DNA from: a virus
Lineage: Duplodnaviria > Caudoviricetes
IMG/VR virus record: IMGVR_UViG_3300031519_000083
Location: 1 to 36,525 of that record
Reading direction: 5' to 3' (one strand)
Length of the DNA stretch: 36,525 bases
In this document: positions 973 through 35,399 of the stretch, piece by piece
How positions within the stretch are numbered: position 1 is the stretch's first letter
Layout of the letters: each line of letters begins with the position of its first letter
Position numbers and translations under genes: made by a program
Notes under the pieces: model-generated
Database searches by the model: none
The model's input: only the letters and a program-made list of their open reading frames with translations
Told to the model about the DNA's origin: nothing

Positions 973-1359
973 TTATTTTTTAGTTGTTTTACTCCATCGG
1001 GCTCTTGTTCCTCTGATATCTACATGTGTAAATGTATTGTATATTCCAACTCCACCTAGTGTAAATGACTCATTTTTCATTAAATCATCTGTAATAGTAG
1101 CTATCTCGCTAGGGCTAAATTGTTTTGACTTAATGTCTGCGGCTTTACCTTTTAAATGTTGTGAATTTGTAGATCCACCGACGTCAGTATTATGTTCTTT
1201 ACAGCGATAAGCATTGGTTAGATCTAATCTACCTACAAAGTCTCTTAGAACCTGTAAATTGTCTGCTAATTCAATTATGTTTTTCTTTACAAACTCAGGC
1301 ATTTTACACCCACATTTGCATTCAAACTCTTCTAAGTTAAAATTATTTGTTAACTTCAT
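973..1359 (-). CDS. Peptidase M15A family Zn-peptidase, probable endolysin
   Basis: NFNLEEFECKCGC N-terminus, AYRC...HN...VGG, SQHLKGKAADI (SxHxxGxAxD) and FTHVDIRG motifs. Confidence 0.92.
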   Translation of the reverse strand: MKLTNNFNLEEFECKCGCKMPEFVKKNIIELADNLQVLRDFVGRLDLTNAYRCKEHNTDVGGSTNSQHLKGKAADIKSKQFSPSEIATITDDLMKNESFTLGGVGIYNTFTHVDIRGTRARWSKTTKK

Positions 1360-4300
1360 TAATATCCAGATATTTTTCCTTGGGGATTAACTGTTGGTCT
1401 TTTAATACCCGTTTTTTTCGCCTTAGATTTAGATTTAGTTTTTGATTTTTTCTCAGTCAATCCTAATTCCCACTCATTCCAACCCATTAGCAATGCTATT
1501 CTTTTATAAGTTGCAACCTCTGCATCTGAAGCAGCTTTTAGGTTATTTAACTTCTTTACAACTCTATCAAGCGGTATGTTTGTTGATGCGGAAACAACAT
1601 TACCACCTGCTAAAAACACTGGATTATCTAAACTAAAACCTTTAGATTTAATTTCATCTATATTCCAATCAAAGGCTCTACCTGCTGATTGCATTTTCTG
1701 TAATTTAGATGCAATAGGTGGTGATATTCTTACTACTTCTAAAATTTTATCTTTGTAATTAGAATTTTTCTTTTGTGATTCTTCGTAAAGCTTTATACTT
1801 GTATTTTTCACAACGGTAAATATAGCTCCATATACACCAGTACCTCTAGAAAGACCATCAACCATACCATTTATCGCTTTTGGTACTTTTTCATCTAAAA
1901 TACTTTTATCTTCTTCATCGTCTTCAAACATTAAAGCGAATAAAGCTTGTTGCATGTAGTTAAAAATAAGATTTTGCACAACACCGTAATATAATATCCT
2001 AGATAAATTAGTTTTTGCATCCCCTCGGCCATTCTTAAGATCGCTAGCTGATTTCTTTATTATACGTGCATATTGAGCCGGAGTGTTAGCAAAAGCTAGC
2101 ACAATACGCCCTAATGGTCCAGCTTGCTCCTGGCTAATTTTATCAGGTCTACTTGACTGCTGAGACTCTTCTGCTATCTCTCTAAAGTCTCGCATTGCTT
2201 GTTTATTTGCAGCTATAGGATTCATGCCTCCTTTCACTAAAGAATTAAGTCTATTCCTATAGAAAGTAGATCCACCAGATGCAATAGCAAAACTATCTGC
2301 TAACTGTGTAGGTGTAAAACCTAATTTAAGTAATTTATTAATAACACCTCTAACCCCACTCTCTTTAGCCACGTCAGCAATATCTTGTTCATTTACATTT
2401 ATCTTCAAGCCATCACGTCTTTCAACCAAGAAATCAGAGTTCCATAATGTTTTAAAATCACTCCAGAATTGAAGTTGATTAGCAAAAGCTTTACCAGCCG
2501 CTATAATATTATTGTCGCCAAAGTTTATAAAGTTAACTGCAGATATTAGCTGTAAAGTAGCAGATCTAGTGTTAAAGAACATAATAGCAGCCGTAGATCC
2601 ATTTATCCAGTCAGTGAAACGCTCCACCTGTTTATTACCAAAACCTCTGTTTCTACCACTCTTCATTCTTTTTAAAATATCCTTCATAGCTTCTTTATAA
2701 GACTCACCAAAAGCAGCTTCTAGCTTATTTAGATTTTTAGGAGAAAATATAATGTCTACATTTTGTTGCCATAATTCTAAATATTCTTTTCTACCAGTGG
2801 TATTTAAAGCCTCTAAAAGGTCAGTTGTAATAGTACCAGTGACCCATTTGTCCGAAGGTTTTACATAAGCTCTACCTTTATTAAGTTTCATTATTTCTTG
2901 AGCAAATAACTTTAATTTAGGATCAGATTCCACTAACTCAACTAACTCAGCAATATCTGCTTCAGATAAATCTGGTGTTTTTTCACCTATTTGTTCCCAT
3001 ATATATACGCGTACAGCTTGTTCTCTTGTAAAAAGACTACCTTTTACTTTTTTCTTAAGGTTTTTAGGTACAATTTTTAAATCTCTTTTTAAAGCTCTAA
3101 AGTCTCTACCTAAATTGTTTCTATCTCTAGTTATATTCTCAACTCCTCTAGCATAAGGATCTATTAAATTATCTTTATACCATTTCATTTGAGAATTACC
3201 AACACTACCTTCACCTAAAGTAGCATACAATAAACCCATAAAATCTTCTGCCGACGGAGGAATAAAGAAGTTAAACCTACCTTTTTTCTTACCCATTAAG
3301 CCGGCCTTAACACCTGCAATTGTTTCACTAGAAGCAATACCGGTTTTATTTTCTATTATATCATTAAACTCTTTATCAAGTTTAGGTGCTGCGTTTTTAG
3401 AGAATTTAAGTTCAGCTTCATTAATCTCGTCATCTAGCTCACCCATTCTATCTAAAACATCTTGATTTGTAAAATCACCTGTTAGCCTTTGTGACTCAGG
3501 TAACATGTTATTATTAGATTTTGCAGCTTTATTTACAGATTTGCTAAGTGAAATAAAAGGCTTTTTAATACTCTCTAATTCAGCCATTCTATCAGTATTA
3601 ACAACACTTACACCGTCTGTAATTCTTTCATCGTAAAAAATATCTATGTTTCTGGTGGTTTGTCCAGAAGAATTTATTATTTTTATAGTTTTTGTAGTTA
3701 CTTTTGGCGCTGTAGGTGACCTACCATTTTTACCAACTACTATTTCCTCCTTTATATAACTATCTTCGCTTAACGTTGTATGTGAAATCGTGCGTTTCGT
3801 AACAATATTACCTGTTCTTAAGTCTTTAACAGTGGATATTGATGAATCAAACACTCCATCAGTATATTTACTTTCAATTTTAGTAACAGCTCGCCCACCG
3901 TTATTCATTTTAGTGGGTTCATTTTTTAACCAAAAAGAAATTTTACCATCTTTAAAATCTTTTTGTTCAATAAGGCTTTTATCCGCATCGTAAAGCTTAA
4001 AATCACTTGTTCTGCTCATGAAATCACCTTCACCATATCCAGTAATATCAAAATTACCTTCATAATCAATCGAGCCAATTATCTTGTAGCCAGTATCTTT
4101 ATCTTTACCTAAGTCTACAGTAAGGTTGTCTGATGGTTTATCAAATCTATCCCACCACTGAACCTCATCACTTGTATCATCACCATTGTCATCAATTTCT
4201 ACAGCACCAGGATCTCCTGCGCCACCATCTCTAAGAGACAATAGTTTACCCTTTTGAAAAGCTATTTTATAACCGTAGCCAGTGGCATTTCGATTATACT

Positions 4301-7300
4301 GTTGCCAATGTGTCCATGCTATGTTCATTATGTTTTTAGGATCAACAGGTTTCATAACAGTCCATCTTCTCGCGTTAGGCTCAAATTTAACATATAGGTC
4401 GTCAAGCTTGTTCTTATTATTTTCTGCGAATACCTTAGCTTCTGATTCAGTTTTAAAGCTAGCAATTAATTTTTGTTTAGTCCTAGCTATTAAACACCAA
4501 GGATTAGCATTTTCACCCCAGTTGCTGTCAACTATACTTCTAACAGCTCTTTGGCCTTTTCTAGAATCTTCAACGTCATATACGGTTACACTATCTCCAA
4601 ATTCTTGCTTATTACTAAGTGCTGGCATGTTGTCAGGATTTACTTTTGACGCCTTAATTTCTTCAGTAAACTTGTTTATTAACTCATCTGGATTTGCATA
4701 AGCATACGGATCTATTTTATTTTTATTAGACAATCTAACAACCTCCTCTATTTTATAACCATCTTCAGGAAATCTAGTATAACCATTAACTGTATAATAT
4801 AATGCTAATTTCTTGTACTTAGGTTTTTTGTTTTCTGGAACATTTAACTTATCAGCCCAATCAAATAAGCTTTCAACTTGTTTAGGTATGTTTGCTAGAT
4901 CTGGTCTATTTTTCATTAAAATACTCTCGTACTCAGCTCTTTTTTTCTTAGAGAATTGTATTTCTAACAAAGAATTATGATTACTACCAGGTTGTAAGCC
5001 AAGATTGTTTATTATTTCTTGCTCTCTTACTACTCCTTCAATATTTTTACTAAACATTAAACTAGATTTACCAGCACCTAGATCGGCTTTAGCCTGATTA
5101 CTATCTAGTTTAGACCTACCAACAGTGTTGATAACATTGTCGATGTACATCTTAGTCAATCCAGTCAGTATGCTTCCAAACTCAGTTCTAGCTTCACCTT
5201 TAATAGGTATACTTAAAGTTCCTTTGTTTATTCCAATTAAGCTTTGTAGTTTAGCCACAGAGCTAGGTGATATATTACCTGTAAATTCAGACTTTAATTT
5301 ATAAACATCTGTCTGAGTAGTTTTACCAAGACTTCTTCCGTTTGGACTAGATATACCAGGAATTGCGCCATCTACTTTATCATAAAATATTGCTAAAACC
5401 TTAGGATTAATACCTATTGATCTTCCATAAGTATCTCTAGATACGTCTATAGTTTCACCCTGCTCATTTACAACTGTCTCTTTAGTAGCTATATTATAGT
5501 CTGGCATTGTTTTTATAAACTTTCTAACATCACTATCATTCTTAAACACGTTCTGCAGGGAATTAGCCTCTGAAGACCCACCGCTTTTATCGTATTTTAA
5601 TGTAGCATTACCTCTAGCTTTCTTACCGCTTATACCAAATATAGCCTCAGACACTTTGTCAAAGAATTTATTGTTTAAACTTTTGAAGTTAGGTCTTTCA
5701 TCTTCTTTTATATCTATTACGCTTTCTACAGCTTCTAGTATCGAAGGATCACTTATAGGACCAAAGCTTGTAGCTTTTATCATCTTCTGAGTAGAATCTT
5801 TTAAATCGCTAGGCTTGCTGTCGCTTCCATATAACGTATTAACATCACCTGACATTTCTTTAACAGATCCAACACCACCTGCTTCTACATCAAGACTTTT
5901 ATCAGCTATCTTTCTAAACTTTTCGTAAGTCTGCTGAGCCTTGGGTGCTATGTTATTATATACCCAGGTTGAAAACTTAGAATCTCCAGGTTTATAAGAC
6001 TCTATTATTCTAGGTAGAAATTCTCTTAAATAATCTTTAACTTCGTCTCTATCATAATCTCCTTTTCTAGTATCGTACTTTATAGCTCTTAAAGCCATGT
6101 TATCGAAAGACTCAACTAAATCAGCTTCAGCTTTTGCTTTTTCTTTGATAGAAGTATCTTTTGATTTTATAGTTTCTATTAAACCTTCGTTATCGTATAC
6201 TTTTTTAGGAGCTGATTTTTCTTTAGTTGAAGATTCTTTTTTAACACTAGGTTTTTTAGCTTGTCTTATTTTTAATTCTAAGTTAGATTTTTGAGCATCA
6301 AAGTCTCCTTCGTCCATCTCAAATTCTCTGTCTATTAAATCTTCTAGTTCAGTGTTAAGTTCTGAAACTGATTTAGATAAACTAACGCCGCTCACTTTAC
6401 CATCTCCATCTTTACCGGCAAGTGCTTTCAAAGATCCTTTAAAATTACCCTTACTGTAAGCCTTGTTGTAATCTTTTATAAAGTTTATAACCCCCTCAGC
6501 TTTATCGAATCTTATGTTTCTAAGGCCTAAGTCTTGAAAAATTCGTCTAAAGAAATCCTGTATTTTTGTTATACTAGACTCATTTAGTTTTACCTCTTTG
6601 TTAGTTACAGCCTCTGAGAATAAAGGAAGAATTTCTTCAAAGAACTTTTCAACAGTAATTTTATTATCAGTAGCATAGCTTTCTATACGTGCTACAATAC
6701 TTGAAGAGGATGAAGAGGATGCTAGTATTTCTTTTAAAAGCAACTCCCCAGCCTGTTGAACTAGCTCTGGTTTTGATGACATAGAAGCTTTTAGAAGTTT
6801 ATGTAAAAATTCATGTTGACCAGTTGTAACAACTCTATTACTAAGTGCAGAAGCTTTGTTTATAACTAAAATTTCTTTACCATCAGCATCCACTACAAAT
6901 GTTCCGTAAGAATCTTTAGTTTCTTTAGCGTACTCCTTAGATTGACCAACGCTTATTAAAAATTCTTCCATTTTATCATCGGCAGATCCATCTTGATCGT
7001 CCTCAAATATTTTGGTTTCATCTATTTTTTGACCAATAGAATTTAAAGACTTTGCAAAATTACTTACATCTTTATCAAATCTTTCAGTTATACTTCTTTT
7101 TATACTGCTATTTTCTATTTCACTATCAATTTCTTTAATTCTATCGTTTATAGGACCATGAAAAGAAGAGTCTGTGTTTTTCTTTTTCTCTATTAATTTC
7201 TTTTTCTGAATTAATAATTCTATCTGATCAGATGAAACGTCTTCTGGAGCCGTATTCATGACGCTAGCAACATCTCTAACAAACACTCTGGCTTTATTTA

Positions 7301-9512
7301 TATCTTCTATAAGGCTAGGATCTGTAGCTGTCTCTAGCATAGTTTTAAAGTATAAATCTGTAGACTTTAAGTTGTTAAATATATCTTTATATATTTGAGC
7401 TTTCTGAGCATTGTAAGTGTTTTTAACACCAGCAAGACCCATACCACCGCTAAGCATAAAAGTTCCAGCTATTAAGTTTATTTGCTCATCAACAAACTCA
7501 TTTTGCTTTAATGCGCCTAAGCCAAAAGCCATGTCTGTAATAATGTTCATTCCAAAAGTAACCTCTTCTTCGAGAAGTTCTTTAAACATATTTCCTGTGT
7601 ATGTTTTAACTGCTGCTTTAGTACCTTCTTTAGTAGTCAATCCTTTTAAAGAATTAAATAATGCGTTTTTTATTTCTTTACCAGCACCACCTTTTATAAA
7701 CTTATAATCAGGCATTATAGCTTGAACCAAACCTTCTGTAAAAGAAACAGTTGTAGCATATAAATCCCCAGCAGGACCACTTAAACCTTTTTTGTTTGCT
7801 TCTATAGAATTATTCAAAATAGTCATCCTAAAAGCAGCATCACTGGATATAATAAGGTTCTTCATGTTTTGAGCAGACTTTGTTACAGCTCCTGCTTTGG
7901 TATAATTTGAAAGCATTTTACCTAAACCCTCTCTATACCCTGTAAATTTACCTTGTTTTACATTTCTGATTATCTCAGCTGTAAAAGGAATCATATTAAA
8001 AGCTGTTTTACTCCATGCTCTAGCACTAAACTCCTTAAGGTTACCTTCGCCATCTGTGATGTTAAATTTTTCATCCTTAGAGTCTGGAACCACGTTAAAG
8101 TTTAATAAATCACCCCAAGTATCCCTCATAGAGTCAAAGCTACTATAAGTGTCATCATCCGTGAACAAGTCTCCAAATGCAGTTGTTACAAAAACAGGGA
8201 ATCCAACAACTGTTTGGCCAGCTAGTTTCACCATTTCTTGAGCAGTGCCTCCTACTTGATCAACAGCCCAATTAAAAACTCCATCACCGGAAAAAGCTTC
8301 TGTGTATTTTTTTACATCATCAGTTAACTTAAAGTTACTTTTCAAAGCCATTCTAGCTATATCTACACCCCATTGAGCGTTTATAACTTCTTGACTCTTA
8401 TTTAAAGACTCTTGCTTACCTTTATATCTATCAGAAGTTTGTTTAAACGTATCTTTTAGAGAGTTGTATTGTTTTAATAAACCATTATATTTATCTACAG
8501 TCTCTTGAGTGTAGCCAGTTGCAGGTTTATTGTTTTTTATAAGATTCATACTTCTAACTAAGGATGATTCTTGTCTTTTTAAATCACCAAAAACATCTTC
8601 AGTTTCTAGTTTTAAAGCATCGTATTCTTTAACTAATTCCTTACGTACTTCTAATATTTTAGGTATTCTGTATTTATTTATTAAAGCTTCCTTATCCTGC
8701 AAATTCATTTTACCTTGCGCTAGCTTCTGTAAAGTTCTAACGTCTTCACCTCCAGCAATAGCTCCTTCTAAACTGTCTTCAAGCTCTATTACCTGTGAAG
8801 GCACATCGGTCTTAGCATCGTTTATCCAGTTGCCAGAAATAGCTTGCAGTCCTTGTTTAAAAAGTCCTTCAGAAAAAGGAGTATCAAAAGTGTTACTCGT
8901 ATTTCCAGTGTCTTTTCTTAGTTGTTCTATAGCTTTATCTTTTAATTTAAAGTTATCATCAAACTTATATATTTGCTCTTTTTCAGCTTTAGCTTCTTCA
9001 TCAAATTTGTCTGACTGATCATCTATATATTGCCTAGCATCTTCCCAAGTATCAAACACATCACCTTCGAGACCGTCTTCCGCATATTTAGTTGCTAATT
9101 TAATTAATTTTTGTTTAGCTTCAGGTGTCTTCTTTAATGTCTTCTTTATTTCTTCATAATCTGTTATAACAACTCCAGAGCTATTTTTTCTAAGCAGGGT
9201 TTCACCCATTGGACCTTTTTCAATATAGTCATCATCAGTTAAATCCATTATAGAACCAGGTTTATTACCTGTTCTTTGCTCGTAATTGAAACTAGCCTGC
9301 TCGTTTGACAGTGGCTCCGAAGAACCATTTTCCGATGCTGAATCCATAGCTGTTACACTTGCATCCTCCGTTGCAACAGCTTCTGTCTTTACTGGTTTAA
9401 CTTCTTCTTCAATTAGCACAGCTCCTTCAAATTGTTCAGAACTCTTAAAATCTTCAAGTAAATTTTCAGGTACATTAATTAATTTACCTGATTTCAATCT
9501 ATAGTATGGCAT
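1359..9512 (-). CDS. Giant virion ejection/cargo 'polyvalent' protein, 2717 aa (zincin, sigma-like, PcfJ-like WC and helical C-terminal modules)
   Basis: Last and largest gene after the tail genes, as for podophage ejection proteins. HEFLH at residues 900-904 with downstream EE959-960; sigma region-2-like segment at ~1108-1222; NPWCL around W1672; hydrophobic helices in the N- and C-terminal thirds. Confidence 0.8.
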   Translation of the reverse strand: MPYYRLKSGKLINVPENLLEDFKSSEQFEGAVLIEEEVKPVKTEAVATEDASVTAMDSASENGSSEPLSNEQASFNYEQRTGNKPGSIMDLTDDDYIEKGPMGETLLRKNSSGVVITDYEEIKKTLKKTPEAKQKLIKLATKYAEDGLEGDVFDTWEDARQYIDDQSDKFDEEAKAEKEQIYKFDDNFKLKDKAIEQLRKDTGNTSNTFDTPFSEGLFKQGLQAISGNWINDAKTDVPSQVIELEDSLEGAIAGGEDVRTLQKLAQGKMNLQDKEALINKYRIPKILEVRKELVKEYDALKLETEDVFGDLKRQESSLVRSMNLIKNNKPATGYTQETVDKYNGLLKQYNSLKDTFKQTSDRYKGKQESLNKSQEVINAQWGVDIARMALKSNFKLTDDVKKYTEAFSGDGVFNWAVDQVGGTAQEMVKLAGQTVVGFPVFVTTAFGDLFTDDDTYSSFDSMRDTWGDLLNFNVVPDSKDEKFNITDGEGNLKEFSARAWSKTAFNMIPFTAEIIRNVKQGKFTGYREGLGKMLSNYTKAGAVTKSAQNMKNLIISSDAAFRMTILNNSIEANKKGLSGPAGDLYATTVSFTEGLVQAIMPDYKFIKGGAGKEIKNALFNSLKGLTTKEGTKAAVKTYTGNMFKELLEEEVTFGMNIITDMAFGLGALKQNEFVDEQINLIAGTFMLSGGMGLAGVKNTYNAQKAQIYKDIFNNLKSTDLYFKTMLETATDPSLIEDINKARVFVRDVASVMNTAPEDVSSDQIELLIQKKKLIEKKKNTDSSFHGPINDRIKEIDSEIENSSIKRSITERFDKDVSNFAKSLNSIGQKIDETKIFEDDQDGSADDKMEEFLISVGQSKEYAKETKDSYGTFVVDADGKEILVINKASALSNRVVTTGQHEFLHKLLKASMSSKPELVQQAGELLLKEILASSSSSSSIVARIESYATDNKITVEKFFEEILPLFSEAVTNKEVKLNESSITKIQDFFRRIFQDLGLRNIRFDKAEGVINFIKDYNKAYSKGNFKGSLKALAGKDGDGKVSGVSLSKSVSELNTELEDLIDREFEMDEGDFDAQKSNLELKIRQAKKPSVKKESSTKEKSAPKKVYDNEGLIETIKSKDTSIKEKAKAEADLVESFDNMALRAIKYDTRKGDYDRDEVKDYLREFLPRIIESYKPGDSKFSTWVYNNIAPKAQQTYEKFRKIADKSLDVEAGGVGSVKEMSGDVNTLYGSDSKPSDLKDSTQKMIKATSFGPISDPSILEAVESVIDIKEDERPNFKSLNNKFFDKVSEAIFGISGKKARGNATLKYDKSGGSSEANSLQNVFKNDSDVRKFIKTMPDYNIATKETVVNEQGETIDVSRDTYGRSIGINPKVLAIFYDKVDGAIPGISSPNGRSLGKTTQTDVYKLKSEFTGNISPSSVAKLQSLIGINKGTLSIPIKGEARTEFGSILTGLTKMYIDNVINTVGRSKLDSNQAKADLGAGKSSLMFSKNIEGVVREQEIINNLGLQPGSNHNSLLEIQFSKKKRAEYESILMKNRPDLANIPKQVESLFDWADKLNVPENKKPKYKKLALYYTVNGYTRFPEDGYKIEEVVRLSNKNKIDPYAYANPDELINKFTEEIKASKVNPDNMPALSNKQEFGDSVTVYDVEDSRKGQRAVRSIVDSNWGENANPWCLIARTKQKLIASFKTESEAKVFAENNKNKLDDLYVKFEPNARRWTVMKPVDPKNIMNIAWTHWQQYNRNATGYGYKIAFQKGKLLSLRDGGAGDPGAVEIDDNGDDTSDEVQWWDRFDKPSDNLTVDLGKDKDTGYKIIGSIDYEGNFDITGYGEGDFMSRTSDFKLYDADKSLIEQKDFKDGKISFWLKNEPTKMNNGGRAVTKIESKYTDGVFDSSISTVKDLRTGNIVTKRTISHTTLSEDSYIKEEIVVGKNGRSPTAPKVTTKTIKIINSSGQTTRNIDIFYDERITDGVSVVNTDRMAELESIKKPFISLSKSVNKAAKSNNNMLPESQRLTGDFTNQDVLDRMGELDDEINEAELKFSKNAAPKLDKEFNDIIENKTGIASSETIAGVKAGLMGKKKGRFNFFIPPSAEDFMGLLYATLGEGSVGNSQMKWYKDNLIDPYARGVENITRDRNNLGRDFRALKRDLKIVPKNLKKKVKGSLFTREQAVRVYIWEQIGEKTPDLSEADIAELVELVESDPKLKLFAQEIMKLNKGRAYVKPSDKWVTGTITTDLLEALNTTGRKEYLELWQQNVDIIFSPKNLNKLEAAFGESYKEAMKDILKRMKSGRNRGFGNKQVERFTDWINGSTAAIMFFNTRSATLQLISAVNFINFGDNNIIAAGKAFANQLQFWSDFKTLWNSDFLVERRDGLKINVNEQDIADVAKESGVRGVINKLLKLGFTPTQLADSFAIASGGSTFYRNRLNSLVKGGMNPIAANKQAMRDFREIAEESQQSSRPDKISQEQAGPLGRIVLAFANTPAQYARIIKKSASDLKNGRGDAKTNLSRILYYGVVQNLIFNYMQQALFALMFEDDEEDKSILDEKVPKAINGMVDGLSRGTGVYGAIFTVVKNTSIKLYEESQKKNSNYKDKILEVVRISPPIASKLQKMQSAGRAFDWNIDEIKSKGFSLDNPVFLAGGNVVSASTNIPLDRVVKKLNNLKAASDAEVATYKRIALLMGWNEWELGLTEKKSKTKSKSKAKKTGIKRPTVNPQGKISGY

Positions 9513-12823: not shown

Positions 12824-14239
12824 TTAGTATGCTGATTCAACGTAGTTTGAAGATACAGCGAACAATTCCATTGGTCCTGTTCTACTAGTTGTATCTGACT
12901 TTATAGTTACAGTAGCTATATAGCCTTTTACACCTGTCATAGAATCACCAAACACAACTTCTCCCTCAGTAGCTGTACTAGCATTAACCAAGTTAGTCAT
13001 ATACTTACCTTCTTTTTTATCAAACCCAGCATAATACGTATAACCAAAATCCCCTACATAAGCTCCATCGTTGTAACTTAATATAGGTGATATAGTGTCT
13101 CTTAATTCAAAAGACCTATTTGCATTGAAAGATGGTATCTCCCAACCGTTAGATCCTTCATAGTTAACTGTTTTAAAGACCTTAGATAAACTAGGTGAAG
13201 GGTTAAATACGAATTGTATAGATGAATCATATTGAACTCCATAGAAGTTGTTTCTAGCAGCCGCTGGATCGTAATGTTTATAAAGTTTATTATCTTTAAA
13301 TGTGTAGTAGTTACTTTGAATACTCAATATTTGATCCGGTTGATAAGAAAAGAAACTAGGAAAACCTAACACTCTTTCGTCAAACGATAAATTCACTAAC
13401 TGCGGATCTGGATTAACAACTGGTGGATTTGCTACAGTTTGCTTACTTTGTTGTAATGATAATACGTACTGTTTAGTATATATATCAAAACCTCCAATAG
13501 CTTTACCTTTGCCAAATGTACCATCTAAAATGCCTAGTTGATCTCTAAAGTAATCAGTCATACCGTAATTAGATATTTCTGTTATGCCGTCCATAGACAA
13601 CCTTAAAACAGAATTTCTATTTTTATCGGTAAAATATTTTCTATAACCATAAGTTGCAAAACTTTCTGGATTTCTACTAATGCCAAATTCACCTGCATAA
13701 GGTTGTATTGCCCCTATAACTAAATTAGATGAAGTAACTGTGCCTCCTCCTTCAGCGGAATATATAGCGTCTTTATCTATCAAAGCCCTACTTACTTTAG
13801 ATTCTTGAAATATAACTAAGTTTGTATCTTCAGCATATAGCTTTTGTATAGATCCATTAGCAGGGTCAACGGACTTTGTTATATCTTCACCTACTGAAAA
13901 TACATTTGTATTATTTATACCTGTTCTAGAATTGTATATACCAGAGTATATTAGTGCGTTAATTCTAAAAGAAGCGTTAGGATTATCTTCAACTAAGTAA
14001 GCCTTTACGCCGTAATCTATATTTGTATTATTATAACCACCTCTTATTCTAGCCTCTTCTATAGCCCAACTAGTACCATCAGTGGAAGGGGTAACGTTAG
14101 CGATAGGGGTTGAACCTGCTACTCCAGTTGGAACACCAAACGAACCATTCCATACAGGTGTGTCTGGGGTTGGCACTGTATCTACTGTTTTCTTTAAAAG
14201 AAAAGAGTTAAAGTAACTTACTTCTATTATTGCTCCCAT
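12824..14239 (-). CDS. Tail nozzle/stabilization ('muzzle', P22 gp10-like) protein, C-terminal part
   Basis: LIYSG...NxF...TKSVDPANGSIQKL...LVIFQESKVSR, EFGISRNPESFA, FTDKNR.SVLRLSMDGITEIS and PSLSKVFKTVNYEGS motifs, typical of crAss-like nozzle beta-propellers. Confidence 0.75.
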   Translation of the reverse strand: MGAIIEVSYFNSFLLKKTVDTVPTPDTPVWNGSFGVPTGVAGSTPIANVTPSTDGTSWAIEEARIRGGYNNTNIDYGVKAYLVEDNPNASFRINALIYSGIYNSRTGINNTNVFSVGEDITKSVDPANGSIQKLYAEDTNLVIFQESKVSRALIDKDAIYSAEGGGTVTSSNLVIGAIQPYAGEFGISRNPESFATYGYRKYFTDKNRNSVLRLSMDGITEISNYGMTDYFRDQLGILDGTFGKGKAIGGFDIYTKQYVLSLQQSKQTVANPPVVNPDPQLVNLSFDERVLGFPSFFSYQPDQILSIQSNYYTFKDNKLYKHYDPAAARNNFYGVQYDSSIQFVFNPSPSLSKVFKTVNYEGSNGWEIPSFNANRSFELRDTISPILSYNDGAYVGDFGYTYYAGFDKKEGKYMTNLVNASTATEGEVVFGDSMTGVKGYIATVTIKSDTTSRTGPMELFAVSSNYVESAY

Positions 14240-14244
14240 GCTTT

Positions 14245-14257
14245 TATTATTACTTAT
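14245..14257 (-). promoter_or_regulatory. Candidate phage promoter motif ATAAGTAATAATA
   Basis: One of four near-identical copies of AyAnGTAAywwTA at gene junctions, all in the coding orientation. Ends 5 nt before the ATG at 14239. Confidence 0.45.
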
Positions 14258-14269
14258 TTATTGTTTTAG

Positions 14270-17200
14270 TTACAGCGTATTAAATAGACATCCTTTAGAA
14301 GCACTAGCTGGCGATGTAATGTCTCTAAGACCGTTTACGTCAAACGGTGCTAAGTATGTGCCGTCTACGGTTCCTTCTTGGTTCGTACCTGTTCTTTTAA
14401 ACCTACGCACATACGTGTTAGTAAAACTCGTAGGCTTTGTAGTCATAGCTATGTCAGTATAAAGCTGTGTAACATATTTAGTAATCCACTCTCTAGCGTA
14501 ATATGTAGTATAACCGGTAGAGCTACAGGTAGCATTGGAGTTCGCAGATGTAACTGAATATTCGTAAGCACCAGAGCCGTTTGCGCCACCGTAACTTGCG
14601 TCCCCCATTTTTAATGTTTGATAAATTCCAGAACTACCAACAGTTCCAGTACAATTTGGGTAAAGCAAGGTTGAGCCTGAAAAATTACCCATTGTTATTC
14701 TATATTCTCCGTCTGTTTCACCAAATTGCGAACCATCAAAAGCAAATATTCTATAACCAGTTGACACCCCAGCTGAACCGTTTGATACATTGTATTGGTA
14801 ATCTGTCTGTCCTATATTTTGATCTGCAGTATCTGTTAACTCGCTGTAAGTATTATATCTTACTGGTTGAAATACCGTTTGGCTTGGTAAGTTAGAAACA
14901 CTTGACATTTCCATACCAAACTTAGCTTTTTGACCATTTATATCATAAGCATGTTGCCAATCATTAAGACCACTAGGCAAATTCCTCCATTCAACAGATG
15001 CTGCTGTTTGAGTAGTTCCAAATGAAGATACATTTTGAGTCCTTATAGCCACGTAAAAAGCAGCGTCATTTCCGCCTTCAAACCAATTTCCTTTATATTG
15101 TTTTCTCCATAAATACTTGTTAGGGCTACATAAATAACCTTGCTGGTTTGGTACACTTGATGTTGGTGTTCCTGAATTGCTTCGCCTAAGACCAATATCT
15201 ATTATATGATTAGCAGCATCTAAATCTTGAAACGAACCGCTAGTGTTGTTAGGATTTGTGAAATAATAAGTATACATTCCACCGTCAGTAGTAGTTACTT
15301 CAGGTATAATAAATCTACTAGGTACAGGTGCGTTTCCTATAGTTATTGTTAAAATAGCATTTTGAGATGCTCCTCCCGCGTCTGTAACACTGATCTCAAG
15401 CGTGAATTGTCCAGCAGCAGTAGCTGATGAATTTGATATTTGACCAGTAGTAGAGTTTATAGTAAAATTGTTTGCCCCTGTAACTTTAGTCCAGGTAAGA
15501 TTAGCCGTTGAAGACCCTCCTGAAAGATTTGATCCATTGACTGCTGTTTGAGTACTAATAACCCCTGTTGTGCCGCTAATTACGATTATTGATTGAGTTG
15601 TACCAGCTCCTATAGTTGGGCTTATGTTTCCAAGTTGCCCAGTTGTAGTTACGTTGTTAGTAATAGGTGCCGCGGGGTCTGTGTTATCTGTTGCAGCAAA
15701 TGTAAATGTATAGGATTCATTAGTGTTAGCTCCAGGTCCATAATATTGATACGCATTAGTTACAAGCTCATATTCATTTCTTACACCTACAACACCTAAT
15801 GCGTTTAAAACCCATTCACCTGTTCTAGTAACGTTGGCCCCATCTACTACCGAGATTAACGTCATCGTTGTGCTATTTATAGGTGACACTGTTATATCGG
15901 TAGGATAGAAATTGGTAGCAACAACATCGGTATTACCTGTAGCCTCTGTTTGAGAAAAATTAAAATTGTCAATCCCAAAAGCACCACCAGTGTCTGTAGC
16001 TACAGCAACATTTAATTCAGATATTAATCCACTTGTCGATGTTTCAAAATAGAAATCTAATCTAGAAAGATCAGGCTCTGTTTCAAATATAGTTAAGTTT
16101 TCTATAGCTTCAAAAGTCCCATTGGGCGCACTTGTCTCAAAGTTAATTAAGCCAAAAGGTTGTGTTGTTGTTATCTGAGCTACTAAAGGATCCGATTCTG
16201 CTTTATAAAAAGGAAAAAACGGATTGTCGTTGTCAGTTATTGGTTTGTTTTGGTTAACTGTTTGCTCGTCGACATCGAAAAGACTACGTAAGTCTTCAAT
16301 AGAAGAAGTTGTATCTGTTAATCTCCCAGGATAAAACTGTTGATTACCTACAGCTACAGTTGCATACTGCGTATTCTCTACTCTACCAATTAATCTAACT
16401 GATGATCTAAATTGTTTTTGCAGTGGTCCAACTTCAGATAAATCTCTAGGAACTTTATTTATATTATCATTTATTAATGTAATATATGAAGTGTTTAAGT
16501 TTTGCGTAACATCCTGAGGATTACCTTTCATAGCTCCCGCATTATAGACGTTGTAGTAATCTTGTTCTTTTTGCTGAACAACTACCTTGTACGAATACCA
16601 TCCTAAAGGATTATAATTAGCACTAGTAGCATCACCGTTGTATAAGCCAGGAGCTCCAGTCAATAGGTTTTTAGTATCAGGTACAACCGCATTAAAAAGT
16701 ATTTTTAAAGACTCACCGGTCCAGCTTGCTGGAGCCGTGTCTGAAGTTGTTTGATATGGAGAAAACACAGTTGAAGCACCGAAACCGGAAGCGGTTAAAG
16801 CGCTTGTATTATTTGATAGTATAGTAGACGATTGTCTTCCAAATTTATCAGATAAAACTATACCTACTTGGTAATTTCTATTTTGTTTAACTGTTGAGTT
16901 AGGATATTCTACAATAGTCTTATTGCTAAAAGGCGAACTTTTAACATATTTGTCAGAGACAGCAACTTGATAGTCTAAAGCAGCCGGCGGTGTATGTTTG
17001 TCTTGAAAATTGCCATAAACAATTCTATTACTTATTACTTCTTGAGAAAAAGCTCTTACTGGAATTTTATCATAAACTCTTATTAATTCCTTAGAAGGAA
17101 GTGTTTTAAAAGGTTTTGTAGATTCGTAAGTGTATTCATATACATTATTCGCTCCAGTTGTAGTGCTAAAAGCATCATCTACTTGTATAGTTTCTGCAAC

Positions 17201-18400
17201 CTGGACAGCTAAGCCGTCAGATTCTTTATATAGTATATCAATAGCGGTTATTTTAAAAGTAGAAGTATCTCCAGCTAAATCAGTTGCATTAGCAGGAAGA
17301 GGTATTTGAAGTTGTATTTTTGTAACTTTATTCTCCATGAAACCCACCACGGTACTAGAAAAAGCTTGTTTTTCATCATCACCTATAAAGTATCCATCTT
17401 GTTTTGGAATAAAACATGGTTGAGTAAAAGGTGCAAATATAGAGTTTTCACCATCATCAAACTGAAACCTATAGCTAAACCTAATGAATTTATCTTCTAG
17501 AAAATCAGGATCACCACCAAAACTAGCGTCATAATATGGGTTAGCTGAACCATTAGGTAGAAGCGCGGTAGACACATCGTACATTGAAGTCTCTAAGCCA
17601 ACAAAACTAATGTTAGCTCCAAAGGCTAAGTCTTGTATTTTAGAAACGGTTATATCATAACTGTTTATACCCTCTACTACGGTACCGGCTTTAACACCTG
17701 TCCCAATTACTCCATTTCCAATTTGAATACCGGTGTTTGAAGTTACTGCTAATATGTTTGTATTAGAAGATGCGGTTAAAGTAGTAGCAAGGACAACAGC
17801 CCCTGCTTGCTCGCTTGGTTTTACAACTCTTATGCATTCATAAGGATTATATTTAGCTACTGATATTTGATCTTCACTTACATAGTAAGTTGGAGCAAAA
17901 TTGTTAGCATTAGGGTTTGCTAGTTTTACGTTTATTTTTCTAGGTTGATTCCTACTATCTGTAAAGAATAACAACTCTTCTAAGAGGTTAACACCTATTA
18001 TCGGACTAGTTGTTGAGAAATTCAAGAAAGCGCCTCTAACAAGCGTTCTAGTGTCACCAGTGATTGTATTGTGCTTGAATACAAAGTTGTTAGCTGAGGT
18101 ATTGTAAGTTATGGTACTTTCACTTGAATTATCTGTATTATCTGTGAAAAAAGAATATATATCGTTATTAAATTCATCTACAAAAAAGCCAATACATTTA
18201 ATACCCGGAACACTCACCGCTGCTCCAAAATCAAAAGCAACCGAGTTACCTAAAACATTTTCTAAAGCACCAACGTCGGATGATTCGGATTTACTAACCT
18301 GTACATTTAAAGCATCTCGATATTCTCCATTAGGTAATAATCGATCATCAAGATCTTTATTCATCTTGGATTTAATGAATGCGTTTTTAACTTCAGCCAT
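14270..18400 (-). CDS. Tail nozzle/stabilization ('muzzle') protein, N-terminal part, with Ig/cadherin-like and variable C-terminal domains
   Basis: MAEVKNAF..SKMNKDLDDRLLPNGEYRDALN N-terminus, LLFFTD...PRKIN, RFSYRF, QEVISNRIVYGN. Cadherin-like segment (FTINSTTGQI...FTLEISVTDAGG) at ~15330-15625. Confidence 0.8.
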   Translation of the reverse strand: MAEVKNAFIKSKMNKDLDDRLLPNGEYRDALNVQVSKSESSDVGALENVLGNSVAFDFGAAVSVPGIKCIGFFVDEFNNDIYSFFTDNTDNSSESTITYNTSANNFVFKHNTITGDTRTLVRGAFLNFSTTSPIIGVNLLEELLFFTDSRNQPRKINVKLANPNANNFAPTYYVSEDQISVAKYNPYECIRVVKPSEQAGAVVLATTLTASSNTNILAVTSNTGIQIGNGVIGTGVKAGTVVEGINSYDITVSKIQDLAFGANISFVGLETSMYDVSTALLPNGSANPYYDASFGGDPDFLEDKFIRFSYRFQFDDGENSIFAPFTQPCFIPKQDGYFIGDDEKQAFSSTVVGFMENKVTKIQLQIPLPANATDLAGDTSTFKITAIDILYKESDGLAVQVAETIQVDDAFSTTTGANNVYEYTYESTKPFKTLPSKELIRVYDKIPVRAFSQEVISNRIVYGNFQDKHTPPAALDYQVAVSDKYVKSSPFSNKTIVEYPNSTVKQNRNYQVGIVLSDKFGRQSSTILSNNTSALTASGFGASTVFSPYQTTSDTAPASWTGESLKILFNAVVPDTKNLLTGAPGLYNGDATSANYNPLGWYSYKVVVQQKEQDYYNVYNAGAMKGNPQDVTQNLNTSYITLINDNINKVPRDLSEVGPLQKQFRSSVRLIGRVENTQYATVAVGNQQFYPGRLTDTTSSIEDLRSLFDVDEQTVNQNKPITDNDNPFFPFYKAESDPLVAQITTTQPFGLINFETSAPNGTFEAIENLTIFETEPDLSRLDFYFETSTSGLISELNVAVATDTGGAFGIDNFNFSQTEATGNTDVVATNFYPTDITVSPINSTTMTLISVVDGANVTRTGEWVLNALGVVGVRNEYELVTNAYQYYGPGANTNESYTFTFAATDNTDPAAPITNNVTTTGQLGNISPTIGAGTTQSIIVISGTTGVISTQTAVNGSNLSGGSSTANLTWTKVTGANNFTINSTTGQISNSSATAAGQFTLEISVTDAGGASQNAILTITIGNAPVPSRFIIPEVTTTDGGMYTYYFTNPNNTSGSFQDLDAANHIIDIGLRRSNSGTPTSSVPNQQGYLCSPNKYLWRKQYKGNWFEGGNDAAFYVAIRTQNVSSFGTTQTAASVEWRNLPSGLNDWQHAYDINGQKAKFGMEMSSVSNLPSQTVFQPVRYNTYSELTDTADQNIGQTDYQYNVSNGSAGVSTGYRIFAFDGSQFGETDGEYRITMGNFSGSTLLYPNCTGTVGSSGIYQTLKMGDASYGGANGSGAYEYSVTSANSNATCSSTGYTTYYAREWITKYVTQLYTDIAMTTKPTSFTNTYVRRFKRTGTNQEGTVDGTYLAPFDVNGLRDITSPASASKGCLFNTL

Positions 18401-19629: not shown

Positions 19630-20421
19630 TTAACTTTTTTGATTTATTTCTTCTTGTTGGATTTGTTGTGATGCTGCTTGAACAATTTGAGGATCTCTTA
19701 TAACTATACCAGCATAAAGTAATACTTTTAATATAACACTTGTTTGCTCCGTAGAAGACAACTCAAAGTTAACTGAACCACCACCACCAGCACTATTGAA
19801 TATATAACTGTTTCCAGGTCCAAGAGTAAAAGCCCATTGAACATTTAGTGGCTTTCTTAAGAAATCTACAGATACGGTGTCAGCGGCTACAGTAGTAGGT
19901 CTTATAAATAATTTATTGTTTTCGTACAAATACGTAGGGAATCTTAGCGTAGATGCCGTGAGGTTTGATTTTTGTATGTTGTAAAACTCGTTTCTAGGAA
20001 GTCTTTGAAGTTCTGTAGGTAGACCAACTGTAGGTTGATATGTTACAGTTCCTAATTTGTAGAAACTAGCTTGACCAACTGTCAACGGTGTTAGCTGATT
20101 ATAAACGATTTGAGTACCGTATATATCAACTGTTGGTAAATCCCAGTAAGGATTATTTGCTATTGCTGTATTAAGCGTTGCATTGCCTGTAGTTTTAAAT
20201 ATAGATATTTTTTCATCTATAGCCATTTGTCTATCAGCATAGTCAACGTCTGCTTGTGGCACTCGTAGTTGTTGGTTTAAATCCTCGAAATATTGTTCGA
20301 ATATGTCTAACTGAACCTGAGTAGCTATCCTGTTAAATTCAGGTGGTGTCATATAGCCACGCTGTTCTTTGTTTAGTATTAACAAGACAGTTTTATATAC
20401 TGTATCTACGTTTATTGCCAT
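19630..20421 (-). CDS. Head-tail adaptor/ring protein
   Basis: LNKEQRGYMTPPEFN..A..VQ N-terminus, FLRKP, helical C-terminus; synteny downstream of the major capsid gene. Confidence 0.65.
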   Translation of the reverse strand: MAINVDTVYKTVLLILNKEQRGYMTPPEFNRIATQVQLDIFEQYFEDLNQQLRVPQADVDYADRQMAIDEKISIFKTTGNATLNTAIANNPYWDLPTVDIYGTQIVYNQLTPLTVGQASFYKLGTVTYQPTVGLPTELQRLPRNEFYNIQKSNLTASTLRFPTYLYENNKLFIRPTTVAADTVSVDFLRKPLNVQWAFTLGPGNSYIFNSAGGGGSVNFELSSTEQTSVILKVLLYAGIVIRDPQIVQAASQQIQQEEINQKS

Positions 20422-20436
20422 TTTTTTTATTTATTA

Positions 20437-20469
20437 TAATATAGGCCCGAGTAAACGAGCCCTATATTA
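20437..20469 (-). terminator. Intergenic stem-loop (terminator or 5' stabilising hairpin)
   Basis: Minus strand TAATATAG-GGCTCG-tttact-CGGGCC-TATATTA. No clear U-tract follows on the minus strand. Confidence 0.5.
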
Positions 20470-20480
20470 ATATTACATGT
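20468..20480 (-). promoter_or_regulatory. Candidate phage promoter motif ACATGTAATATTA
   Basis: Copy of the AyAnGTAAywwTA motif upstream of the ring-protein gene. Confidence 0.45.
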
Positions 20481-21301: not shown

Positions 21302-21378
21302 AATATGATATAATATAAATGTTTATTTAATGACAATAGCCTGTTACTATAATATATACTAGCTAATGTCACATAAGA

Positions 21379-21419
21379 GTAATAGTTACCCCCGTAGTTT
21401 TAACGAGGGTAATTACTAC
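21379..21419 (-). terminator. Rho-independent terminator after the major capsid gene
   Basis: Minus strand GTAGTAATTACCCTCGT-taaaact-ACGGGGGTAACTATTAC followed by TCTTAT. The G-U pairs work on the minus-strand transcript. Confidence 0.75.
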
Positions 21420-21435
21420 ATTAATTTTGAATCTT

Positions 21436-28757: not shown

Positions 28758-29032
28758 TACTTAGATCTACCTTCAGCAAACCCTTTAAAAGCTTTTTCTT
28801 CTTTAGCTTCTTTAGGTTTCTCGTTAAGAATATTGTCTTCTTCATCTATACGTTTAAGTATTTCAAAAGCATCAAATATTGCTAATTTTTTAGTGGCAGC
28901 TGCGTTTTTAAGCTTGTCCGCTGTTAAGTCATCATCTGAATCTACAATAAGTTCTTTAGCTACTTTAACTAATTCCGCTATCGCGATGTGCCCAGCTTGG
29001 ATTATACTCAACTTGGTTTCCTTGGTGTTCAT
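28757..29032 (-). CDS. Probable terminase small subunit
   Basis: 91-aa helical protein whose stop overlaps the terL start (TAATG); ends in GFAEGRSK. Assigned by position and size. Confidence 0.6.
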   Translation of the reverse strand: MNTKETKLSIIQAGHIAIAELVKVAKELIVDSDDDLTADKLKNAAATKKLAIFDAFEILKRIDEEDNILNEKPKEAKEEKAFKGFAEGRSK

Positions 29033-29582
29033 ATTTGATTACAATATCATTAGATTTCATACAGAAAACTCTTTGCTCGTCGACGATAAAATCCCATTCG
29101 CTGTTAGGAGTAAACCCTACAACATCTCCTGGGTTGATTTTAAGCGCTTCTAAGGACTTATTACCATACTTTAGTATACCAATAAGCTTTTGCTCTTTAT
29201 CGTTCGTTAGAATGTCTTCATTTTTTAGAGGCATTACAAAACATCTGTCTCCAAATGATTTCCAATCCTCTGTATTTTTATACAAGTATATCTGATCTAC
29301 AGCACAGAAATATAAATCATCTTTAAAATATGATCTACTATTTTTTTTCACACCTTTCATGTCGTAAAATACTCTAAAAACATTGTGGTGTATTAATACT
29401 ATATCTCCTTTTTGTATACTTGTTTTAAATGCTTTTGGCGTTTCTACTACAACTGCTAAATTGTTAACAGATTTAAAACTTTCTATTTTAGTATTTAAAA
29501 CCAAAGTTTTGTCACCAATCTTTATCTCATTTTCATATCTATCACCAAGTGGCTTGATGATGAAGTCGTACAAGCTCTTCAT
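28965..29582 (-). CDS. Tandem GroES-like (two Cpn10 domains) co-chaperonin-like protein
   Basis: Domain 1: FIIKP...AVVVETP...IQKGDIVLIHH. Domain 2 (from ~residue 107): KSFGDRCFVMP...IGILKYGN...INPGDVVGF...FIVDEQRVFCMKSNDIV, which parallels GroES PLHDRVIV...VKVGDIVIF...IDNEEVLIMSESDIL. Confidence 0.7.
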   Translation of the reverse strand: MKSLYDFIIKPLGDRYENEIKIGDKTLVLNTKIESFKSVNNLAVVVETPKAFKTSIQKGDIVLIHHNVFRVFYDMKGVKKNSRSYFKDDLYFCAVDQIYLYKNTEDWKSFGDRCFVMPLKNEDILTNDKEQKLIGILKYGNKSLEALKINPGDVVGFTPNSEWDFIVDEQRVFCMKSNDIVIKYEHQGNQVEYNPSWAHRDSGIS

Positions 29583-29809
29583 TAATACTCTAAATCGTAT
29601 TCAACAGATATTGCCATGTTAGAATTAAATTTCTTCCAAGGCATTACCTCATCTTCTTTTTTAATGTATATGCTGTAAGAGTTTGATTCTTGATCGTGTA
29701 GTATAGCTGAAATAGTATGTCCGCCATAAACGTTTTGCCCAACTGCATAATGCATGGCATCGTTTTTATAATCGGAACCTATACTGATCTTTCTTACAAT
29801 AGAACTCAT
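29582..29809 (-). CDS. Conserved hypothetical phage protein (small beta-rich)
   Basis: 75 aa, TAATG-coupled at both ends; IVRKISIG.DYK..AMHY.VGQ motif. Confidence 0.75.
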   Translation of the reverse strand: MSSIVRKISIGSDYKNDAMHYAVGQNVYGGHTISAILHDQESNSYSIYIKKEDEVMPWKKFNSNMAISVEYDLEY

Positions 29810-30066
29810 TATACTTTTTCTAAAGTGCTTGCAGATTCATTTTTCTCAATAAGAGTGTAACTACCATCAGTTAGATCAATGTTAACTTGTCCATACTCTT
29901 TTTCTAATTCTTTTTTAGTTGTTTCTAAAGCCTCTGCAGCTCGCATTTGAATATGTAATGCTTCATGCTTTCTACTCTCAATAAAACCAATATCGATAAA
30001 AGCCGCTTGTAATTTAGACTGCTGATCCTGAATAGTTTTTAATTGTTCTTCTGTGATTTTTTTCAT
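29809..30066 (-). CDS. Coiled-coil phage protein (chaperone-like)
   Basis: 85 aa helical hairpin ending in LEKEYGQVNIDLTDGSY. Confidence 0.7.
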   Translation of the reverse strand: MKKITEEQLKTIQDQQSKLQAAFIDIGFIESRKHEALHIQMRAAEALETTKKELEKEYGQVNIDLTDGSYTLIEKNESASTLEKV

Positions 30067-30094: not shown

Positions 30095-30107
30095 TATAGT
30101 TACTTGT
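30095..30107 (-). promoter_or_regulatory. Candidate phage promoter motif ACAAGTAACTATA
   Basis: Copy of AyAnGTAAywwTA 28 nt upstream of the ATG at 30066, heading the chaperone-terminase-portal gene run. Confidence 0.45.
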
Positions 30108-32041: not shown

Positions 32042-32416
32042 TTATTTGTTTGTTGTTAAGTCTATATAAAAATGTGATAATTTTTTAACGGTAACGGTTT
32101 TATTTAAGTCACCAGTATATTCACATATCATTGTGTTTGAATCTTTTAAAATGTATTTAATATCAACGTAGTACCCGTTATCTGGATTATGTAGTTTAGT
32201 TGTAAAGGTTTCTCCATTGCTACTTACAATGTATTCTTCTATAAAATCATTTTCAGAAAAGCTAGTGTTAAACACTTTAACTGGTTTAGAGTCATCAGTT
32301 ATGATAGTCATAACATATGAAGATGTTTCACTTACCCAAGAACCTTCCATTTTGTTTATTTGAGCATTTAATAACAATGTCGATATTAATGCTAGTAGTA
32401 ATAGTAATTTTTTCAT
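32042..32416 (-). CDS. Secreted/periplasmic beta-barrel-like protein with Sec signal peptide
   Basis: MKKLLLLLALISTLLLNA|Q signal peptide (Gln at +1, typical of Bacteroidota), then a lipocalin-like GxW start (MEGSW). Confidence 0.7.
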   Translation of the reverse strand: MKKLLLLLALISTLLLNAQINKMEGSWVSETSSYVMTIITDDSKPVKVFNTSFSENDFIEEYIVSSNGETFTTKLHNPDNGYYVDIKYILKDSNTMICEYTGDLNKTVTVKKLSHFYIDLTTNK

Positions 32417-32442: not shown

Positions 32443-32455
32443 TATTATTACGTGT
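32443..32455 (-). promoter_or_regulatory. Candidate phage promoter motif ACACGTAATAATA
   Basis: Copy of AyAnGTAAywwTA overlapping the zincin stop codon, 26 nt upstream of the ATG at 32416. Confidence 0.45.
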
Positions 32456-35136: not shown

Positions 35137-35399
35137 AGAACAACAACTACATCTTGTAATTTTATAACATGATAAGTTTCTTTATTTACTTCAATCTTAT
35201 GTCCCGCATGCCTATCAAAAAATATTTTACCATTATCCTCTAAGCCAGTTGCAGCAGCTTCATCACCTAGTGAAACTATAGTAGCTTCAGTGTATCTAAT
35301 ATCTTCTCTTTGAGTTTCTGCAAGTAAGAGACCACCTTTTGTAATGGTAGTCCCTTCTTTTAGTTTTCTTATAATTATATTTCTACCTACTGCTTTCAT
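35133..35399 (-). CDS. groES: Co-chaperonin GroES
   Basis: MKAVGRNIII...TTITKGGLLL (mobile loop)...ATIVSLG...IFFDRHAG..I...YHVIKLQDVV. Confidence 0.9.
   Translation of the reverse strand: MKAVGRNIIIRKLKEGTTITKGGLLLAETQREDIRYTEATIVSLGDEAAATGLEDNGKIFFDRHAGHKIEVNKETYHVIKLQDVVVVL

Follow-up and report, generated by a model that had tools for sequence, protein, structure and literature searches.

A diverged sigma70-family domain 2 within a giant protein of an uncultured phage clade, and a possible two-sigma cascade

The window, by which we mean the whole 36,525-nt (36.5-kb) stretch of DNA analysed here, is the IMG/VR record IMGVR_UViG_3300031519_000083, a virus record that is 57% complete. It contains the late arm of a marine podovirus-type phage, and the early arm is absent. 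The late-arm genes are all located on the minus strand and encode GroEL, holin, terminase, portal, capsid, tail, and muzzle proteins. GroEL and a GroES-like protein of 205 aa are encoded just upstream of the terminase gene (window 28965-29582 and 35383-36525), as they are in phi38:1 and Elemo. The crAss muzzle-like family phrog_14478 is divided between two neighbouring ORFs (window 12824-14239 and 14270-18400). A GC-rich hairpin at about 21310-21430, which separates the capsid gene from the ORF that follows, is conserved at the same site in relatives and is likely a terminator.

The nearest relatives of the terminase and the capsid protein were found in an uncultured spring phage, Elemovirus, Panino, and phi38:1, the cultured members of which infect Flavobacteriia. 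Furthermore, SD-like sequences were rare in relatives of the window phage (18 of 344 long ORFs), as they are in Bacteroidota (PMC6847099). The host is likely of the Bacteroidota, or flavobacterial, type. Among 28 MAG contigs with the gene of the giant protein described below, 13 were labelled Bacteroidota and 15 were not so labelled.

The last large gene of the structural block encodes this giant protein, and its features are as follows.

1359..9512, minus strand: giant modular protein of 2717 aa, encoded by the final large gene among the structural genes and likely carried in the virion
6801..6815, minus strand: HExxH zincin-type motif (residues 900-904), present in 21 of 21 giants examined and absent from 8 further long members
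6372..6380, minus strand: LSK linker motif (residues 1045-1047) at the upstream module border, candidate cleavage site
5898..6200, minus strand: sigma70-family domain 2 (regions 1.2-2.4; residues 1105-1205), recognised by fold, family profiles, and language-model features
5790..5906, minus strand: flexible linker (residues 1203-1241) with the SLD stretch, pLDDT below 50, weakly conserved
5055..5789, minus strand: domain D2 (residues 1242-1486), confident model, in place of sigma region 4
5046..5054, minus strand: FSK linker motif of the SK type (residues 1487-1489) at the downstream module border
3543..5045, minus strand: variable insert (residues about 1490-1990), exchanged between relatives
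1440..3530, minus strand: conserved helical C-terminal region (residues 1995-2691), family marker

In phi38:1 and Elemo, the gene slot of the giant is filled by gp101 and gp90, respectively. Both of these are annotated as structural, and no sequence similarity of the giant to either protein was detected. Because the slot is shared with structural proteins of no detectable similarity, we infer the virion location from gene position and domain fusions, which point to the giant being likely packaged. When 50,697 phage records were searched with the giant by tblastn, no match was obtained, and no cultured member of its family came to light. The family sample consisted of 111 close homologues and 126 representatives, and about 1200 IMG/VR stretches, by estimate, match the patterns of the C-terminal region. 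In these giants, a variable N-terminus is followed by the HExxH domain, the sigma domain 2 (hereafter sigma2), D2, a variable insert, and a conserved helical C-terminus. The HExxH domain matched no MPTase profile. Relatives of the giant carry LysM, lysozyme, or kinase domains; in two of them (P0101 and P0111), a zeta-toxin-like kinase domain was found in the part equivalent to the insert. The insert of the window protein (residues about 1570-1990, 3543-4800) contains a WCL-containing segment and beta-rich repeats, for which no family match was obtained. The model of the C-terminal region was all-helical with no listed strands, was of low confidence (pLDDT 57), and matched no fold and no polymerase, a negative that does not amount to a new fold.

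The sequence-only reading had likened residues 1108-1222 (window 6191-5847) to a sigma factor, citing W1183 and S1206-L1207-D1208, and these positions proved correct. The likeness to sigma domain 2 is beyond chance, in that a fold search, family profiles, and language-model features agree. Residues 1088-1486 were modelled with AlphaFold2 from 41 rows (pLDDT 79); in the model, a helical domain that spans about 1105-1205 is joined by a disordered linker to the second domain, D2. When this model was compared with 48,161 solved chains, the domain-2 fold was found, as the same reading had anticipated, and the top 29 rows were sigma chains as judged by title or chain size. The best match was S. aureus SigB (8x6g_H; rmsd 3.3, 89 aligned residues) with a Z of 8.4, a modest value common for helical bundles, and the weight therefore rests on the uniform list of sigmas; the first unrelated row had a Z of 4.8. 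Foldseek gave no match at E<=0.001, although sigmas filled its lists.

Independently of the model, a 44-row family profile matched SigB in the PDB with an E of 5.9e-4, and sigmas accounted for 20 of the 24 matches at E<=2. Further family profiles of the segment also matched sigmas, more weakly, and NCBIfam sigma models were matched by 2 of 19 orthologous segments (E 1e-4 and 6e-4). When ESM features of residues 1102-1227 were compared with named clusters only, Sigma70_r2 clusters made up 26 of the 30 matches, with values up to 0.95. The Pfam search proposed for recognising the domain (Sigma70_r2, PF04542) failed: the window sequence alone showed no sigma match in Pfam, PHROGs, NCBIfam, or PDB sequences, the curated cut-offs of PF04542 and TIGR02937 were not reached, and Sigma70_r2 was likewise not matched when sets of 17, 33, and 19 relatives or segments were scanned with Pfam. 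Iterated profiles detected sigma2 in 105 of 111 giants, a set that was not dereplicated and of which about 20 were in the profile seed, and in none of the reversed controls; 18 of 108 loci, from which the central part was missing, had been dropped. Taken together, these findings confirm residues 1105-1205 as a diverged sigma70-family domain 2.

A sigma2 segment was also observed in six large proteins without D2 (P0209, P0212, P0214, P0216, P0217, and P0221), one of which (P0209) has an N-terminal phage lysozyme; hence, sigma2 may occur in other cargo architectures. In P0024 and P0025, D2 is 88-90% identical to that of the window protein and the sigma2 allele is very different, indicating that sigma2 has been exchanged independently of D2.

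The best-conserved positions of the embedded domain are two aromatic ones. All 44 rows have an aromatic residue in the Y1173 column and 39 of 44 have one in the W1183 column, and the domain keeps the pattern aromatic-x-Pro ... FST-aromatic of region 2.3. In sigma70, the equivalent aromatics form the pocket that receives the flipped -11 base (-11A). The core-binding signature in region 2.2 of sigma factors is DLxQE; it is degenerate in the window protein, which has EVKDY, and across the family. In a predicted complex of the module with a Flavobacteriaceae beta' clamp, the score was 0.45 and that of the best control was 0.05, the partner pLDDT was 66-71, and at least 75% of the contacts agreed between runs. 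Among solved pairs, 116 of 157 attained the score mark, as did 2 of 215 mismatched pairs, and scores at or below 0.60 included just 18 of the solved pairs together with both mismatches. Binding of the beta' clamp by the module is thus predicted, if weakly; since sigma2-beta' is a solved textbook pair, passing the mark may reflect likeness only.

Short linker motifs were found at both borders of the module. In 49 of 91 giants, sigma2 is preceded at a distance of up to 40 aa by an xS[KR] motif, and in 51 of 91 it is followed at 200-320 aa by an SK-type motif; the respective counts for control windows were 12 and 20. By analogy, SK motifs on both sides of sigma2-D2 would fit the self-processing proposed for polyvalent proteins. 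Between the two domains, the SLD stretch does occupy the place of region 3.2, for which it had been taken; as a motif it is not conserved (S, L, and D in 8, 5, and 5 of 44 rows, respectively), and it is predicted to be disordered. D2, which was searched within the two-domain model, gave no fold match, and we make no claim of a new fold. It opens with an HTH-like stretch (residues 1276-1299) that is conserved in one subfamily. The suggestion that this stretch is a degenerate region 4 gained no support, as its profile matched no sigma region 4 and its best HTH-bearing match was DnaA with an E of 0.26. Neither the region 3 helices nor region 4 was detected in the giant. Given its place in the module, D2 is a candidate reader of upstream promoter elements.

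We also examined the giant for signs of a polymerase. A DxDxD motif, said in the sequence-only reading to be missing from the protein, is in fact present as DYDRD at residues 1152-1156, inside the stretch quoted there; what stands of the claim is that no such motif is conserved. The best DxDxD column has the motif in 4 of 41 rows, and a DFDGD/DFDID-like motif occurs in 3 of 111 giants. DYDRD was ruled out as a polymerase catalytic motif because it is not conserved. Similarly, RGDAK...YYG near the C-terminus, which we take to resemble motif B of single-subunit polymerases, was rejected as such a motif, being one residue off in a region whose model matches no polymerase. The supposition that the phage has no RNA polymerase of its own agreed with a PHROGs scan of the complete relative G004, in which 82 ORFs, a set that did not include the giant, one ORF of 605 aa, or a long ORF for a tail fibre, gave no RNA polymerase match. 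In the same whole record (L020-L023), PHROGs detected no DNA polymerase among the 82 ORFs, yet primase-helicase, ligase, RNR, and thymidylate synthase are present.

Subsequently, sites upstream of the phage genes are considered. In three relatives found through the giant, small early ORFs are preceded by the motif TACAAA-N5-TACG-N10-GATAATA with fixed spacing. Leave-one-out scans of the three gave 6, 9, and 13 sites as against 0-1 in shuffles, and 4 sites were observed in G001, whose module is 99% identical to that of the window. Neither early sites nor a sigma2 domain was detected in phi38:1, Elemo, or MW202828. Among 20 fetched records, 19 had 5-22 sites, each set on one strand, and the 20th was a 20-kb piece; 17 of the 20 had been chosen for the motif, and their counts are not independent. 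The giant was present in 21 of 21 near-complete records chosen by the motif, and the motif in 9 of 10 near-complete records chosen by the giant, a co-occurrence that lies within one clade and is not independent evidence. The box of Flavobacterium sigmaA, TAnnTTTG (PMC9723704), was found upstream of genes at chance level (early, 9 of 278 versus 7.8 shuffled; late, 6 of 282 versus 8.5 shuffled). Repeats at 60-65 kb of G004 were rejected as promoters, being tail-fibre coding repeats. In four records (G002 of 129.5 kb, G009, G015, and G035), stretches are duplicated, so that either the sigma gene or the set of early sites occurs twice; these records resemble assemblies that have been concatenated or are chimeric.

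In G002 and G004, the replication module encodes a separate protein of the sigma70 family, about 250 aa long. It is encoded in 20 of 21 near-complete motif-bearing records with 53-67% identity to the G004 copy, and its region-2.2 DLxQE signature is intact. In 17 of 18 records, the gene lies downstream of the early sites on the same strand; in the remaining one, G019, the sites are found at the opposite end of the contig. In G025, the gene is immediately preceded by an early site. Profile-profile comparison of sigma2 with this sigma gave weak likeness (probability 4.7, E 0.0085), which does not show that sigma2 originated by recent duplication of the separate sigma. Directly upstream of the sigma gene is a conserved ORF (L018:1829-2482, minus; L017:682-1302, plus) whose product of about 210 aa ends in an HTH-like segment; it has no PHROG match and is a candidate transcription co-factor or replication initiator.

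A second motif, GTRAYNNTA, was observed before late-strand genes in 54 of 282 segments versus 7.3 in shuffles; it was picked by eye from the data used for these counts and is enriched on the early strand too (28 of 278 versus 10). The window, which lay outside the derivation of the motif, has 6 matches at most 100 nt from a late start, of which the following 4 are well placed.

32443..32451, minus strand: late promoter-like motif GTRAYNNTA, 35 nt before ORF 32042-32416
30095..30103, minus strand: late promoter-like motif, 37 nt before ORF 29809-30066, at the start of the packaging/head operon
20468..20476, minus strand: late promoter-like motif, 55 nt before ORF 19630-20421
14245..14253, minus strand: late promoter-like motif, 14 nt before ORF 12824-14239, in the operon that ends with the giant gene

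The sequence-only reading had proposed a sigma-like module that redirects the host RNA polymerase. It is supported in part, by the fold and homology of domain 2 and by the failure to detect a phage RNA polymerase; the region 4 that it suspected was not found, and a second, complete sigma had been missed. Redirection also fits the phage-specific early promoter-like sites and the lack of enrichment of host-type sites. Since the early sites are not of host type, no polymerase was found, and the separate sigma, the only conventional one of the phage, is encoded behind these sites, something present at entry should fire them. On balance, we lean towards the reading that the injected sigma2 module fires the early promoters on the host core and that the separate sigma serves the late genes. 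In such a scheme, the giant would be packaged and would enter the host with the phage DNA, where its own zincin domain might release sigma2-D2 by cutting at the flanking SK linkers. Sigma2-D2 would then dock on the host RNA polymerase core and open the phage early promoters; D2, replacing sigma region 4, would read the two upstream boxes TACAAA and TACG, and sigma2 would melt GATAAT. The early transcripts would encode the separate full-length sigma, which would act on the late promoters GTRAYNNTA. Packaging, cleavage, binding, and the assignment of factors to motifs are the steps that we infer. As a complete picture, in which an abundant, uncultured clade of marine Bacteroidota phages without its own polymerase uses a two-sigma cascade, a virion-injected, self-released sigma2-D2 for tripartite early promoters and a conventional phage sigma for late genes, the proposal is put forward tentatively, at slightly less than an even chance.

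Several observations argue against this reading. The early motif is nearly invariant, yet over 17 genomes sigma2-D2 has a mean pairwise identity of 20%, compared with 62% in the separate sigma and 59% in the capsid protein; because a conserved site is more simply read by a conserved factor, the separate sigma would be the simpler reader. Furthermore, the region-2.2 signature is degenerate in the module and intact in the separate sigma. The geometry A-NNN-TA is common to both motifs, so that one sigma might read both, and the G025 site directly before the sigma gene is what autoregulation predicts. Promoter variation tracks neither factor: Mantel tests on 17 of 18 genomes (G002, without a capsid match, was left out) gave r of 0.05 and 0.04 (p about 0.35), and no assignment of the early motif to either factor could be drawn from them.

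Accordingly, the separate sigma is a serious rival as reader of the early sites. It may read the early, and perhaps the late, motif with positive feedback, and the injected sigma2 would then be a decoy that displaces host sigmaA or a low-specificity primer of the first round. The presence of this conserved sigma in nearly all near-complete records and the position of the G025 site are in its favour, and the low identity of sigma2-D2 and its swapping between close relatives are as expected of a host-interaction surface. However, the sigma gene lies behind the same sites and host-type promoters are not enriched, so that another factor has to act before it; conservation in the embedded domain is highest on the DNA-melting side, not on the core-binding side; and the distinct late motif needs a reader. 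We regard this explanation as unlikely, while taking it seriously.

Another possibility is that a sigma-derived domain has been repurposed, binding single-stranded or melted DNA or serving structurally in genome ejection, with no role in transcription. This is consistent with the degenerate core-binding motif beside retained aromatic positions, with the failure to detect region 4, and with the adjoining HExxH domain, which diverges as fast as sigma2-D2 (21% identity in 17 genomes). We judge it quite improbable, however, because it leaves the first firing of non-host promoters unexplained, because related phages without the domain are also without the motif, and because the linker motifs bracket sigma2-D2 as one unit.

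The proteobacterial -10 consensus is TATAAT, from which GATAAT differs by one base. A host holoenzyme, with an alternative flavobacterial sigma or the sigma70 of a non-Bacteroidota host, might hence read GATAAT and leave the embedded domain accessory or vestigial, for which the 15 MAG contigs not labelled Bacteroidota and the host ECF sigmas with partly unknown promoters (PMC9723704) can be cited, but this is very improbable given the Flavobacteriia hosts of the nearest cultured relatives, the scarcity of SD-like sequences, the 20-nt spacing from TTACAA to GATAAT with a third fixed box, and the retention of the domain in 105 of 111 giants.

Phages are known to begin infection by using promoters of the host type or by packaging an RNA polymerase. 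The two-sigma cascade, if true, would add a third way of achieving immediate-early transcription. Packaging a sigma would be cheaper and would free the phage from the unusual sigmaA promoters of Bacteroidota, and D2, if it reads the upstream boxes, would be a new promoter-recognition domain replacing region 4. Now that the module (440 residues), the separate sigma, and both motifs are defined, the claim can be tested without culture of the phage.

Compared with known systems, the embedded domain shares with sigma70 domain 2 (PF04542; SigB 8x6g_H) the helical fold of regions 1.2-2.4 and the region-2.3 pattern; unlike them, it falls below the curated cut-offs, has a degenerate region 2.2, and is embedded in a protein of 2717 aa. 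The phage sigmas T4 gp55 and SPO1 gp28/gp34 read phage promoters on the host core, gp55 having domain 2 only, and are made during infection for middle or late genes. We know of no phage sigma of the T4/SPO1 type that is virion cargo, and the true analogue of these sigmas in the clade is the separate 250-aa sigma. We found no report of a virion-borne sigma in titles and abstract openings, in a search that most subscription journals lay outside.

Phages phi38:1 (Pervagoviridae), Elemovirus, and Maribacter phage Panino resemble the window clade in homologous terminase and capsid, gene order, and GroEL/GroES. Unlike in the window clade, their giants are not detectably homologous, and no early motif was found (41 of 77 kb of Panino scanned); a match to the separate sigma was likewise not obtained. 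The window phage is closer to phi38:1 and Elemo than to crAss-like phi14:2, whose giant protein we take to be a virion RNA polymerase.

The phage polyvalent proteins of Iyer et al. 2017 (PMC5512222), for which a zincin-like MPTase, self-processing, and injection are proposed, are alike in being giant multidomain proteins among virion genes with an HExxH motif and swappable modules. None of their LPD families matched the giants scanned above E 0.01, and the word sigma has no occurrence in the main text of PMC5512222. The N4 virion RNA polymerase (PMC5512222 and PMC13434306) is likewise a giant injected protein that solves early transcription, injection of the window giant being our proposal. 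Unlike the N4 and phi14:2 polymerases, the window giant showed no conserved DxDxD and, in the parts modelled (residues 1088-1486 and, with low confidence, the C-terminal region), no polymerase-like fold, and its proposed cargo is a specificity subunit for the host core. The module would combine the action of a phage sigma with the delivery of a virion polymerase. We conclude that the module is a sigma2 homologue, neither demonstrably a complete sigma factor nor a crAss-type polymerase, and that the present analysis adds the clade-wide link among the sigma2 domain, the early motif, the separate sigma, and the late motif.
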